Shown here: positions 4,224 to 6,354 of the stretch, one piece after another | Layout of the letters: each line of letters opens with the position of its first letter | Position numbering within the stretch: the stretch's first letter is position 1 | Origin: a virus | Lineage: Duplodnaviria > Heunggongvirae > Uroviricota > Caudoviricetes | DNA: 16,062 nt | IMG/VR virus record: IMGVR_UViG_2698536355_000012 | Span: 1 to 16,062 of that record | Direction: 5' to 3' (one strand) | The notes under the pieces: generated by a model | Seen by the model: the letters and a program-made list of their open reading frames with translations, nothing else | What the model was told of the DNA's origin: nothing | The model's database searches: none | Made by a program: the position numbers and the translations under genes

Positions 4224-4435
4224 GCTGCACGCTCCTTACTAACGCTGCTACTGTTACGCAGGCATTCGATTTCAGCCATAAGCGCTACCCGCTGATCCAT
4301 CAACTCGGTCAGTGCTGTAAAGGTGACGTCGAGCCTTGTCGCCATTTCACGCATTAGCACTGCTGTCGCTGGTGGTAGTCCCGGCACAGCGGCATGCGCC
4401 TCTGTGACAAGTTCTTTCACCTTCAGGCGGCGCAT
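4220..4435 (-). CDS. Hypothetical small protein
   Basis: 71 aa ORF in the same densely packed operon; its start overlaps the end of the HD-domain gene by 13 nt. No motif recognised. Confidence 0.4.
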   Translation of the reverse strand: MRRLKVKELVTEAHAAVPGLPPATAVLMREMATRLDVTFTALTELMDQRVALMAEIECLRNSSSVSKERAA

Positions 4436-4962
4436 TTGCGGATCTCCATCAGCTCGTTAAAGCGATTCATGAAAAGACCAAACGCCTGGCCTGGCCGCAG
4501 CGGGACAATCTGCACGATATCGGAACAGGGGATACCTTCGAGGCAGGGCCACACTGACCCGTCATCGTTCTCGAGGTCACGCCGCTCAGTGGCCAGCATC
4601 ACCAGGTCGGCATACTTGACCACGTCCGTCTGGTGCATCGGGAGGTTGAACTTGCTGCGGATCAGAGCATCCACTTGCGTTTCAATACGGCGATAGTCCG
4701 GCAGCAGGGCTTTAAGCGGCGACGGGATGTCCTGGCAGTAGGCTTCCGCAGCATCGTGCAGCAGCGCTTCCAGGGCAAACTCTGGTGGTACAATCTGGCT
4801 GGCGAGCACAGAGTGCTGGGCGACGCTGTAGAACTCCGGCAGGTGGCCGGCGAAGCGACAGATATTAGAAAGTGCGTTGGCGATATCTTCGATATCAATA
4901 TCGTCAGTGGTGGCGTTGATGTAGTCAAAATGCTTGCCAGAAAGTGTCTGGATATAGCTCAT
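4423..4962 (-). CDS. HD-domain phosphohydrolase, YfdR-like 5'-deoxynucleotidase
   Basis: 179 aa; His ... LLHDAAEAY places an H-D dyad in the expected metal-binding position. GGAGA 9 nt upstream of ATG 4962. Length and gene order match my recollection of E. coli KplE1 yfdR (178 aa). Confidence 0.7.
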   Translation of the reverse strand: MSYIQTLSGKHFDYINATTDDIDIEDIANALSNICRFAGHLPEFYSVAQHSVLASQIVPPEFALEALLHDAAEAYCQDIPSPLKALLPDYRRIETQVDALIRSKFNLPMHQTDVVKYADLVMLATERRDLENDDGSVWPCLEGIPCSDIVQIVPLRPGQAFGLFMNRFNELMEIRKCAA

Positions 4963-5098
4963 CGCTGTACTTCTCCATATTTTCGCAGCTGCACCTGCGG
5001 CTGTTTTTGGGTATGCGAATCCCTCGCCAGGTGGCGATAATTAACGGAATTACGCTTCACTAATTGCCCCGGCGCGCAGGGCAATTAAGGCAATGCAA

Positions 5099-5929
5099 TT
5101 ACGCTTTGAAATTACCGATGAAGGTTTCTACCGGCTTATCGGTGAATTTCTCGATCAGCAGATCTCGGAACTCATTGGCGATAGCTTCTTCCTGGGCTTC
5201 CAGTTGAACAATGCGCAGCACAAATATCGGTTCCCCACTTTTGAGCAGGCTGTTGCGCAGACTAAAGCGGCGTTCGCCCAGGCCTTCATATGGCACGCAT
5301 TTGAACTCGAAGGCCACCGGCATGACGTCTTTGCTGCTGGCTTCAACGCTCTGCATCAGGGACTTTCTGCCGCCAAAGTCTTCGTCTTCATGAGCTGCTT
5401 CTGAGACTTGTTTAATGTTGACCCGGCGAACAGCACCAGCTGCTTGCGCGATGGACAATACATTCCCGTCGGCATCAAATGCGGTGAGGTAGTCGGCCCA
5501 GTCTTCCAGCCACTCAGCTATTTCTTTCTGACCCAGACGATCACCGTTAATCTGGAGCAGGGCTCGGTATGGTGCTGTCTTTTTGAGGGTGATAGAGGCG
5601 ACGTTATCAGCATGGCCTGGGTTAGCCAGCGTACCGATATTAAAGACGGAGCGTGCTGTCATGTTGTCAGCATCGATAAAGCAGCGCGCTGGTTCGGCTT
5701 CGTTGGCGTAGCCAGCCGCATAACGCACAAAATCAGGAATGCTGGTTGTGGTCATGGCTCCGCGGAAACGAAAACGCTCTAGGTCGAAACGCTCGAGGCT
5801 TTCAACGTTTACGCCTTCAGGGAGAAGGGCAGTAGGGCATGCCGTTTCTTTTACAGCAGTCAGGTGGTAACCGGAAAGAACCAGGTCTTTCACCTGCTGC
5901 AGGGCATTGCCGTCTAAAATCTGGGACAT
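5099..5929 (-). CDS. YfdQ-like (DUF2303-type) prophage protein
   Basis: 276 aa ORF with AGGAAA RBS 5 nt upstream of ATG 5929. Assignment rests on length (K-12 YfdQ recalled as 274 aa) and position between YfdP-like and YfdR-like genes; not verified by alignment. Confidence 0.5.
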   Translation of the reverse strand: MSQILDGNALQQVKDLVLSGYHLTAVKETACPTALLPEGVNVESLERFDLERFRFRGAMTTTSIPDFVRYAAGYANEAEPARCFIDADNMTARSVFNIGTLANPGHADNVASITLKKTAPYRALLQINGDRLGQKEIAEWLEDWADYLTAFDADGNVLSIAQAAGAVRRVNIKQVSEAAHEDEDFGGRKSLMQSVEASSKDVMPVAFEFKCVPYEGLGERRFSLRNSLLKSGEPIFVLRIVQLEAQEEAIANEFRDLLIEKFTDKPVETFIGNFKA

Positions 5930-5982
5930 AAAATTTCCTTAATATGTGGTCAAAGTGATGTCAGTGATTTGTCTGCTGCGGA

Positions 5983-6354
5983 TCACTGTGCCGCTTTAAG
6001 CTTTCCGTCAACGCCGCCGTTGATCCCGAACAACTGCCCCTGATCTTCCTGCAGGATGGTCAGCTTGCCACCTTTGTTAACCCACATAGGTGTTTCGGTA
6101 GTGTCTTCTTCGGAGGCTTTACCGCGCGGAGTTGGGGTGCTGTAGTTCAGCTTGTGCTTGATCTTGACGCGCTTCTCCTCGACGGAGTTACCCATACGCT
6201 CAAAGTCAAAGGTGAGGACTACTTTGCCTTTGCTGCCGTTATTCAGAACGCCAAGCGCGGTGATGTTTAAAGCTGCCGCGATTTTGTTCATGAACACGCC
6301 AGCATCCAGTTCGCCCAGGAAATCGGGCACTACGGTCATGCGATCATTGCTCAT
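5983..6354 (-). CDS. YfdP-like prophage protein
   Basis: 123 aa ORF, first gene of the leftward early operon downstream of the leader, GAGGGT RBS upstream of ATG 6354. Assignment by size and order only (K-12 YfdP recalled as 120 aa). Confidence 0.45.
   Translation of the reverse strand: MSNDRMTVVPDFLGELDAGVFMNKIAAALNITALGVLNNGSKGKVVLTFDFERMGNSVEEKRVKIKHKLNYSTPTPRGKASEEDTTETPMWVNKGGKLTILQEDQGQLFGINGGVDGKLKAAQ

Follow-up and report, generated by a model that had tools for sequence, protein, structure and literature searches.

The closest described relatives of the locus reported here are the yfdPQRST genes of CPS-53 (KplE1), a cryptic prophage of Escherichia coli K-12, and an accessory cassette of lambdoid phages. 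In K-12, YfdR binds domains I-II of DnaA in a Phe46-dependent manner, and multicopy yfdQRST inhibits chromosomal initiation (Noguchi and Katayama, 2016, PMC4776307). [quoted passage not shown] The effect was seen only on oversupply; initiation was unaffected when the genes were deleted, and the authors conceded that an artifact is possible (PMC4776307). The preliminary description of our locus stated the DnaA binding and the inhibition upon overexpression accurately. In phages, the cassette has already been described from the early-left operons of LLS, ST64B, and phiNP-type lambdoid phages, and ArgO145 carries it together with a full Rec module (PMC12315714).

Such a cassette is present in the window (the whole 16,062-nt stretch of viral DNA that was analyzed, from IMG/VR record IMGVR_UViG_2698536355_000012), and its features are listed in Table 1. 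Pairwise BLASTP against the MG1655 CPS-53 proteins, taken from NC_000913.3, gave 59% identity over 122 aa for YfdP (E = 8e-49), 55% over 276 aa for YfdQ (E = 1e-111), and 66% over 178 aa between the HD protein and YfdR (E = 6e-93). The homology that the preliminary description had proposed from gene order and length is significant for all three proteins, and its figures were correct throughout, including lengths of 123, 276, and 179 aa here and 120, 274, and 178 aa in K-12 and the positions of five ORFs. Family assignments agree with the alignments. The YfdQ homolog scored 211.3 bits against the DUF2303 model (PF10065; cut-off 26.6) over residues 27-274 of 276, and the YfdP homolog matched phrog_204 (E = 3e-40) and is encoded immediately upstream of yfdQ; a precomputed match to PF27127 (YfdP family) exists for an identical public gene. 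The HD protein combines its identity to YfdR with intact metal-binding residues of the H...HD...D pattern, and the PHROG matches of the trio are phrog_204, phrog_210, and phrog_318. The three genes are almost certainly true yfdP, yfdQ, and yfdR homologs placed in a PL operon.

Table 1. Features of the cassette and of its upstream control region, with positions in the window.
Feature	Position	Strand	Description
234-aa mosaic protein gene	3519..4223	-	Variable accessory gene; outside the conserved cassette
71-aa protein gene	4220..4435	-	Start overlaps the HD gene stop; neither YfdS nor YfdT; frequent fourth cassette member in enterobacterial relatives
yfdR homolog, putative HD-domain phosphohydrolase	4423..4962	-	179 aa; K-12 counterpart annotated as 5'-deoxynucleotidase
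yfdQ homolog	5099..5929	-	276 aa; DUF2303
yfdP homolog	5983..6354	-	123 aa; opens the early-left operon; constant upstream neighbor of yfdQ
Early-left operon leader, untranslated	6355..7200	-	About 845 nt; ORF-poor; structured
OL/PL region	7203..7299	-	Operator-like repeats around a leftward sigma-70-like promoter, and the cI terminator
CI-type repressor gene (HTH and S24 peptidase), controls PL	7311..7970	-	Pfam Peptidase_S24 (E = 3.1e-23) and HTH_3 (E = 2e-16); phrog_4, transcriptional repressor

The region is organized like an early-left operon. Genes run on the minus strand throughout from 6354 to the integrase, and each of the five ORFs is preceded by a Shine-Dalgarno-like sequence. The yfdP and yfdQ homologs are separated by a 53-nt gap on the same strand, and start-to-stop overlaps connect the genes from the HD gene onward. 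Upstream, a candidate PL (TTGACC-17-TACATT) spans 7234-7206, and a hairpin resembling a terminator spans 7297-7274. At OL, repeats related to TGTACC...GTTACCT occupy 7203-7224 and 7238-7259 and an inverted copy occupies 7281-7299; the same motif is found at OR (7965-7986 and 8013-8034). The repeats are approximately 22 nt long and 68-77% identical to the reference copy. Operator-like repeats common to OL and OR, together with the position of the cluster in the PL operon, bear out the suggestion that it is an early function. The cluster had also been placed directly downstream of PL. It is indeed the first coding unit of the operon, but a leader of about 845 nt lies between PL and the yfdP ATG (6354).

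No convincing ORF was found in this leader. It contains a long conserved hairpin (about 6405-6492; MFE z = -5.25), for which 89.9% of cells were paired in an alignment of 33 sequences, compared with at most 52.6% in slid controls, and compensatory changes were seen in 11 pairs of the same alignment. A small hairpin lies immediately upstream of the ribosome-binding site of yfdP. An Rfam search of the leader gave no credible match, the single hit being a miRNA family at chance level (E = 0.08). Phages LLS and ST64B likewise have a stretch of about 630-815 nt that carries no annotation.

Phages LLS and ST64B and an E. coli prophage have the same layout, and members of the LLS/ST64B/phiNP type share with the window the succession of repressor, gap of 0.6-0.9 kb, yfdP, yfdQ, HD gene, small protein gene, variable genes, DEDDh exonuclease gene, xis, and int, with 79-83% DNA identity over the shared parts. 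They differ in which accessory genes separate the 71-aa gene from the exonuclease gene, and many relatives differ in immunity specificity, with CI identities ranging from 29 to 89%. A public assembly is 99.98% identical to the window over 6.2 kb, and these very genes are found in public assemblies. Among named YfdQ proteins, that of Enterobacter hormaechei is the closest. Within the part of the phage that the window covers, Pfam and PHROG searches of ten ORFs between 1337 and 7970 revealed no recognizable recombination gene (Red-beta, RecT, Erf, Sak, Exo, Gam, or Abc2). Chi (GCTGGTGG) is over-abundant, with 14 sites over 16 kb where 0.69 would be expected, a count reached by none of 200 shuffles. 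The window has both properties by which the LLS functional type is defined, namely, "no Rec module" and richness in Chi (PMC12315714). The locus is best explained as an ordinary accessory cassette, known from earlier descriptions, in the PL operon of a lambdoid prophage of the LLS/ST64B type from Enterobacteriaceae. With its position corresponding to that of Red/Gam, we also considered whether the cassette could be a recombinase in disguise; this idea was rejected as unsupported, since its proteins showed no similarity in fold or sequence to annealases or nucleases, and ArgO145 has both the cassette and a full Rec module, with YfdP and YfdQ adjoining gam, RecT, exo, and ssb in our own comparison.

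Compared with CPS-53, gene order is the same and the lengths of the first three genes are near-identical, whereas YfdS (DUF551) and YfdT follow the HD gene in K-12 and unrelated proteins of 71 and 234 aa follow it here. Moreover, no repressor or cro is annotated upstream of yfdP in CPS-53, whereas cI, PL, and the leader are intact in the window. A further window gene (10139-10399) matches CPS-53 YfdM (76%), so that CPS-53 appears to be related to this phage type and to have decayed.

The two genes downstream of the HD gene had been said to differ in size from yfdS and yfdT, and BLASTP of the 71-aa and 234-aa proteins against YfdS and YfdT gave no similarity (E = 13 and 1.3). Homologs of YfdS and YfdT were not found anywhere in the window by tblastn. 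The possibility that the 71-aa protein is a truncated YfdS or YfdT was rejected on the same BLASTP result and on a family profile comparison (hhalign probability < 1%). The further suggestion that this end of the module may be novel does not hold, as the 71-aa protein matches phrog_12248 (E = 4e-27), a homolog of it is the next gene after the HD gene in 66 of the 80 close loci, and the identical 71/234-aa arrangement occurs in public assemblies. The 234-aa gene was present in just nine of the 80; it opens a series of variable genes that continues with an HNH nuclease, the DEDDh exonuclease, xis, and int. Its product matches phrog_18739, phrog_250, and phrog_1138, and its C-terminal part (residues 119-214) matches the PADLOC "DpdH" model (E = 1.5e-39). 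PADLOC returned no match for YfdP, YfdQ, the HD protein, or the 71-aa protein, and a defense or anti-defense system was discarded as an explanation of the cassette.

The HD protein matches phrog_318, which is labeled "deoxyribonucleoside 5' monophosphate phosphatase" (E = 2.9e-96), and can be aligned over its full length with Atu1052 (PDB 2gz4; E = 1.2e-14). In an alignment of 116 sequences (115 unique homologs and the window protein), H50, H69, D70, and D119 are kept in 110-111 sequences and E73 in 109. Judging from these invariant catalytic residues, the protein is probably a real phosphohydrolase, and their strict conservation suggests that enzymology, beyond DnaA docking alone, is under selection. 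It shares the HD motif residues and the full-length 2gz4 alignment with 5'-deoxynucleotidases of the YfbR/Atu1052 type but falls under the curated YfbR cut-offs, scoring 20.4 bits with the Pfam YfbR-like model (PF12917; cut-off 25.9) and 16.9 bits with the NCBIfam 5'-deoxynucleotidase equivalog (NF003009; cut-off 122). Its place is in the phage YfdR branch rather than in the housekeeping YfbR family. The label of 5'-deoxynucleotidase comes only from the annotation of K-12 YfdR and the PHROG name.

From these data, the most likely sequence of events may be envisaged as follows. Upon inactivation of the CI repressor, PL would fire leftward, and past the structured leader the transcript would encode YfdP, YfdQ, the YfdR-type HD phosphohydrolase, and the 71-aa protein. 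The cassette would act as an accessory of early-lytic DNA metabolism and host replication. The HD protein, a predicted active dNMP phosphohydrolase, may dock on domain I of DnaA in competition with DiaA and DnaB, as its K-12 homolog does; the chances that it binds DnaA in vitro seem to us about even. YfdQ would be needed for the effect in vivo, and expression from PL would damp initiation at oriC during phage replication. The proposed logic, whereby oriC is restrained through the binding of DnaA by a protein from a mobile element or a developmental program, resembles that of lambda P and Bacillus subtilis SirA, and both SirA and YfdR depend on the Phe46/Phe49 patch of DnaA domain I (PMC4776307). 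However, neither protein showed a relationship in sequence or fold, the target of lambda P is domain III of DnaA, and the interaction suggested here is derived from homology with YfdR only.

We lean slightly toward this account as the best overall explanation, in which a near-certain identity is blended with a weakly supported mechanism. The proposal of a replication interference module draws support from the homology of yfdQ and yfdR, from the position in the PL operon, and from the replication, recombination, or nuclease genes that neighbor the cassette in other phages (SSB, a DnaQ-like or Rv2179c-like exonuclease, RecT/Exo, and DHH); against it, the effect in K-12 required oversupply, and of the K-12 inhibitory set only yfdQ and yfdR are present. 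The set tested in K-12 is incomplete in the window because neither yfdS (DUF551) nor yfdT has a homolog there, and for lack of this third component we regard inhibition of host initiation as a doubtful candidate for the physiological role of the cassette. The K-12 assay may also miss the real job of the cassette, since yfdP, the tightest partner of yfdQ, was dispensable in it.

A different picture emerges from gene linkage. Among the close enterobacterial loci, YfdP was found in 79 of 80 and the HD gene in all 80, in constant order, whereas YfdS and YfdT are rare neighbors (1/80 each). In distant loci, YfdP is encoded directly upstream of YfdQ in every one of the 97 that have upstream sequence, but the HD gene lies within 5 kb in only 35 of 85 and is rarely adjacent. 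Vibrio and Xanthomonas phages and ArgO145 carry the pair with no adjacent HD gene, and mosaic joints occur between yfdQ and the HD gene, such that relatives with 97-98% identical YfdP/YfdQ have HD proteins only 78-80% identical. The trio is not an obligate unit; the YfdP-YfdQ pair is invariant, and the HD gene is an optional member in distant phages. Hence two neighboring but separate functions may be present, with YfdP and YfdQ forming a module, possibly a large oligomeric assembly that acts on DNA or a host factor, and the HD protein being an independent enzyme of the nucleotide pool. This reading also agrees with the large, single-domain YfdQ family (over 2,600 clusters at the 50% identity level) and with the 36 YfdQ chains of PDB 9o7m, an unpublished entry matched only by sequence and the only solved structure. 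It is at odds with the K-12 phenotype, in which the need for both yfdQ and yfdR implies cooperation (PMC4776307), and with the universal presence and constant order of the HD gene in close relatives. On balance, we treat it as a tentative possibility.

Equally tentative is the view that nucleotide metabolism is the selected role of the cassette, with the HD enzyme dephosphorylating dNMPs released by phage or host nucleases (e.g., the DEDDh exonuclease or HNH), so as to reshape or cleanse the early-lytic dNTP pool, and with DnaA binding being incidental. The invariance of the metal-binding and catalytic residues and the K-12 and PHROG labels are in its favor, as is the co-occurrence of an Rv2179c-like exonuclease, which is encoded downstream in 50 of the 80 close loci, beside the HD gene in phage pAN, and in at least seven distant loci. 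However, the nucleotide affinity of YfdR is much below that of YfbR, and its function "remains elusive" (PMC4776307, citing Zimmerman 2008); the low scores of the HD protein with the YfbR models point the same way, and neither the need for YfdQ nor the invariant YfdP-YfdQ pair is explained. A benefit to the lysogen in the form of stress tolerance, as proposed for cryptic CPS-53 from the weak MMS and H2O2 sensitivity of a yfdQ deletion and the increased H2O2 and acid sensitivity of a CPS-53 deletion (summarized in PMC4776307), is improbable, given that the repressor-controlled PL with its operator repeats precedes the cassette, which should therefore be silent in a lysogen, and that phages able to form plaques conserve the cassette just as well (LLS; Flotzy, whose YfdQ is 97.5% identical; ST64B; and those of Vibrio and Xanthomonas).

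Shutdown of oriC through DnaA domain I by such an HD protein, encoded in an intact and inducible prophage, would place the K-12 overexpression result in a natural context, with the cassette redirecting the machinery of host replication as an early phage function. The window itself adds no new kind of element; the cassette is already known. What the comparison adds is a sharper target, namely, YfdP-YfdQ as an invariant unit, with the HD gene and the 71-aa gene as clade-specific companions; in most natural cassettes, the YfdS or YfdT required in K-12 is absent.

Models of YfdP and YfdQ had no informative fold relatives, and no sequence relative provided a biochemical handle. The disordered C-terminal tail of YfdP contains a conserved short motif, [DG][QND][LM]F, whose enteric form (QGQLF) bears a loose resemblance to a peptide that binds the beta clamp, whereas Pseudomonas forms lack the leading Q. 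A clamp-binding motif fits the enteric sequences only and was left as speculation. It is highly improbable, on present evidence, that the conserved machine is a YfdP-YfdQ pair targeting the replisome (clamp), with an HD partner on DnaA, in a two-pronged replication-takeover module; if true, this would explain the position of the cassette in Chi-rich, "no Rec module" lambdoid phages that lack Red/Gam. In favor of this reading are the adjacency of YfdP and YfdQ at all loci examined, across phages of Enterobacteria, Pseudomonas, Vibrio, and Xanthomonas, the lack of informative fold relatives, the 36 YfdQ chains of the one solved structure, and the YfdP tail motif.

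The window carries, on its minus strand, homologues of yfdP, yfdQ, and yfdR from the cryptic prophage CPS-53 (KplE1) of K-12, followed by a 71-aa gene; the identity and operon organization of this cassette are practically certain. The preliminary description gave the lengths of five ORFs (123, 276, 179, 71, and 234 aa), all of which were exact in length and position, and the homology that it proposed for the first three was borne out by alignment with the MG1655 CPS-53 proteins (NC_000913.3). Its statement that the two distal genes are not yfdS and yfdT also held: YfdS and YfdT had no similarity to the 71- and 234-aa proteins in pairwise alignment, no homologue of either was found by tblastn in all six frames of the window, and hhalign comparison of the 71-aa family profile with YfdS or YfdT gave probabilities of <1%. 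The observation is thus confirmed in every particular. A Shine-Dalgarno-like sequence precedes each of the five ORFs, stop-to-start overlaps join the genes from the yfdR homologue (HD gene) onward, and the minus-strand genes run unbroken from 6354 down to the tyrosine integrase at the left edge of the window.

Coordinates of the cassette, its regulatory region, and Chi sites in the window
Feature	Position	Strand	Remark
Tyrosine integrase	1-1176	minus	
234-aa ORF	3519-4223	minus	no YfdS/YfdT similarity
71-aa ORF	4220-4435	minus	no YfdS/YfdT similarity
yfdR homologue (HD gene), 179 aa	4423-4962	minus	66% identity to K-12 YfdR, E=6e-93
yfdQ homologue, 276 aa	5099-5929	minus	55% identity to K-12 YfdQ, E=1e-111
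yfdP homologue, 123 aa	5983-6354	minus	59% identity to K-12 YfdP, E=8e-49
Operator-like repeats (TGTACC...GTTACCT-related)	7203-7224, 7238-7259; inverted copy 7281-7299		just downstream of cI
Candidate PL, sigma-70-like TTGACC-17-TACATT	7234-7206	minus	among left-hand repeat copies
cI terminator-like hairpin	7297-7274		
CI-type repressor, HTH + S24 peptidase	7311-7970	minus	
Operator-like repeats, ~22 nt (TGTACC...GTTACCT-related)	7965-7986, 8013-8034		between cI and cro
cro-like gene	8064-8261	plus	facing cI
Chi sites	1445, 1763, 4368, 8331, 8568, 10985, 12489, 12962, 13318, 14506, 14907	plus	
Chi sites	10623, 10769, 15036	minus	

The YfdQ homologue is a full-length DUF2303 member (PF10065, 211 bits) and matches phrog_210. 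The YfdP homologue matches phrog_204 and also the recent Pfam family PF27127 'YfdP', an assignment precomputed for identical genes of public assemblies. At 50% identity, 2,680 clusters make up the YfdQ family (E<=1e-3); the 150 best of them are mostly single-domain proteins of 265-288 aa. AlphaFold2 models were of fair quality (mean pLDDT 81 for YfdQ and 79 for YfdP), that of YfdQ having a disordered loop at 173-200. The one solved entry found by sequence, 9o7m ('YfdQ Protein', 36 chains of one sequence), is closest to the homologue of Xanthomonas phage CP2 and shows only that YfdQ is solvable in the form, or as part, of a very large assembly. YfdP, YfdQ, and the HD and 71-aa proteins matched no PADLOC model. 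A short conserved motif in the disordered C-terminal tail of YfdP (residues ~102-111) takes the forms EDQG[QND]LF in Enterobacteria, NPT[DA]Q[LM]F and EKHDQLF in Pseudomonas, and NKDLF in Xanthomonas. The enteric form resembles a beta-clamp-binding peptide, Qxx[LM]F; the non-enteric forms lack its first Q.

The HD protein hits phrog_318 ('deoxyribonucleoside 5' monophosphate phosphatase'), and its alignment with the HD protein Atu1052 (PDB 2gz4, E=1.2e-14) runs from end to end. Its scores against the YfbR models fell short of their curated thresholds, and it is therefore assigned to the YfdR branch of phages, not to the housekeeping YfbR family. When it was aligned with the 115 unique homologues collected in this analysis, the HD motif residues H50, H69, D70, E73, and D119 (window numbering) were present in 109-111 of the 116 sequences, a conservation that speaks for catalytic activity.

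The candidate PL is the only minus-strand sigma-70-like site in the left-hand repeat stretch. Together, repeats and promoter form a standard OL/PL arrangement (early-left operators and promoter), which makes the cassette an early-left function and supports the early role claimed for it. The cassette had been placed directly downstream of PL; it does lie downstream, but ~845 nt separate PL from the yfdP ATG. This leader (6355-7200, minus) contains no convincing ORF, and comparable unannotated gaps of ~630-815 nt occur in phages LLS and ST64B and in one E. coli prophage.

A long hairpin is located in the leader just before yfdP (6405-6492, minus; 20-bp outer stem ACACAACAGATAAGAGCATC / GGTGCTCTTATCTGTTGTGT; MFE z=-5.25). 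Across 33 related sequences, pairing holds for 89.9% of cells, compared with at most 52.6% in slid controls, and compensatory changes occur at 11 pairs (e.g., GC:15 / AU:13 at one pair). A small GGCGG...CCGCC hairpin (6365-6385, minus) abuts the yfdP ribosome-binding site. As in the lambda N leader, this could be a site for RNase III or for translational control; an Rfam search of the leader returned no credible match, only a chance-level miRNA hit. Two more islands (~7111-7200 and ~6825-6950, minus) are ~77-94% conserved in many relatives that have different repressors, with variable DNA between the islands. The latter island is duplicated in some loci, and several E. coli chromosomes have unannotated matches to 6579-6905. 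Since there is no N-like gene, an RNA-based antitermination element would be conceivable.

The window DNA is most similar to phages phiNP, LLS, Eeyore, ST64B, and Flotzy. Its YfdQ shares 97% identity with a protein of Enterobacter hormaechei and occurs as the exact sequence in many public assemblies; in one of these, GCA_024852625.1, a 6.2-kb stretch with the 71- and 234-aa genes matches the window at 99.98% identity. The same cassette was described in the early-left operons of LLS, ST64B, and phiNP and as 'fairly common' in lambdoid phages, with its first product a putative 5'-nucleotide phosphatase and the other two without known function (2025 Genome Research, PMC12315714). The finding holds, but it is unremarkable and has already been published. 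These three phages were placed in a Chi-rich 'no Rec module' type (PMC12315714). The window fits this type, since it has 14 Chi octamers (GCTGGTGG) against 0.69 expected (a count reached in 0 of 200 shuffles), 11 of them on the plus strand, and no recognisable recombinase among the early-left ORFs scanned.

In K-12, yfdQRST was isolated as a multicopy suppressor of hda-185 (Noguchi & Katayama 2016, PMC4776307). Of the proteins in YfdQRST-rich extracts, only YfdR bound DnaA, in a Phe46-dependent manner through domains I-II; the preliminary description was accurate on this binding and on the inhibition upon overexpression. [quoted passage not shown] Gene deletion left initiation unchanged, and the authors themselves allowed for an artefact of overexpression (PMC4776307). 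For the window, induction would lead to early expression of the cassette, and the HD protein would work as a dNMP phosphohydrolase. Given its homology to YfdR, this protein may in addition dock on domain I of DnaA and, with YfdQ, may damp initiation at oriC. The chance that this HD protein binds DnaA is about even, and inhibition of host initiation is rather unlikely to be the selected role. Replication interference, as suggested in the preliminary description, is a reasonable lead, but one tested defining feature of the K-12 gene set, yfdS or yfdT, is absent here. That the cassette instead benefits the lysogen is very improbable and fits poorly with PL control.

Two panels of loci indicate which genes travel together. 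Among 80 IMG/VR contigs with YfdQ 77-98% identical to that of the window, the HD gene is present in all loci and YfdP in 79, the exception being cut by a contig end. A homologue of the 71-aa gene immediately follows the HD gene in 66/80, the 234-aa gene has homologues in nine, and YfdS and YfdT in one each. The distal end had been considered possibly novel, a suggestion that we reject because the 71-aa gene is commonly a fourth member and the entire arrangement occurs in public assemblies. Identity changes abruptly between neighbouring genes (in some loci, 97-98% for YfdP and YfdQ, only 78-80% for the HD protein, and 68% for the 71-aa protein), and alleles are therefore shuffled at intergenic joints. 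The ~130-nt non-coding gap between yfdQ and the HD gene (4963-5098, minus; 136 nt here, 127 in K-12, and 135 in LLS) harbours TAATT(G/C) repeats along with a GC-rich hairpin (AATTGCCC...GGGCAATT), and falls where yfdQ and HD alleles meet at a mosaic recombination joint.

The second panel consists of 102 loci with YfdQ only ~35-60% identical to that of the window, from Pseudomonas-type prophages and viral contigs as well as Vibrio, Xanthomonas, and Stx phages. In each of the 97 loci with at least 500 nt of upstream sequence, the ORF immediately preceding yfdQ is YfdP-like; an HD homologue lies within 5 kb downstream in only 35/85, almost never adjacent. Two independent functions, adjacent only by chance of position, are possible if on the unlikely side. 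The nameable neighbours are replication, recombination, or nuclease genes (SSB, DnaQ-like and Rv2179c-like exonucleases, DHH/DHHA1 phosphoesterase, and cytosine methyltransferases; gam/RecT/exo in ArgO145). A purely nucleotide-metabolic role of the HD enzyme, in concert with neighbouring nucleases, is likewise a tentative alternative to inhibition of host initiation. From the linkage counts, the YfdP-YfdQ pair is the conserved functional unit, the HD and 71-aa genes are clade-specific companions, and K-12 is unusual in its YfdS/YfdT context. What remains of value is the biochemistry of this very widespread pair.

Other early-left genes had features of their own. The C-terminal half of the 234-aa protein (residues 119-214) matches the PADLOC model for 'DpdH' of the Dpd 7-deazaguanine DNA-modification defence cluster (E=1.5e-39), and the N-terminal half of this mosaic protein recurs with other C-termini. 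A 238-aa ORF (2317-3033, minus) overlaps a 95-aa ORF (2855-3142, minus), and public gene calls of the identical locus use an internal start that shortens the former to 182 aa. The shortened protein and the 95-aa protein both begin with MTNNNLT..., a sign that an Ea22-like N-terminal module may have been duplicated in tandem at 2317-3142. Between the exonuclease gene and xis, a 135-aa protein (1337-1744, minus) is made up solely of a LexA-type DNA-binding domain (Pfam LexA_DNA_bind, E=1.3e-22), without the S24 peptidase domain, and could be a non-cleavable LexA mimic acting on the host SOS regulon.
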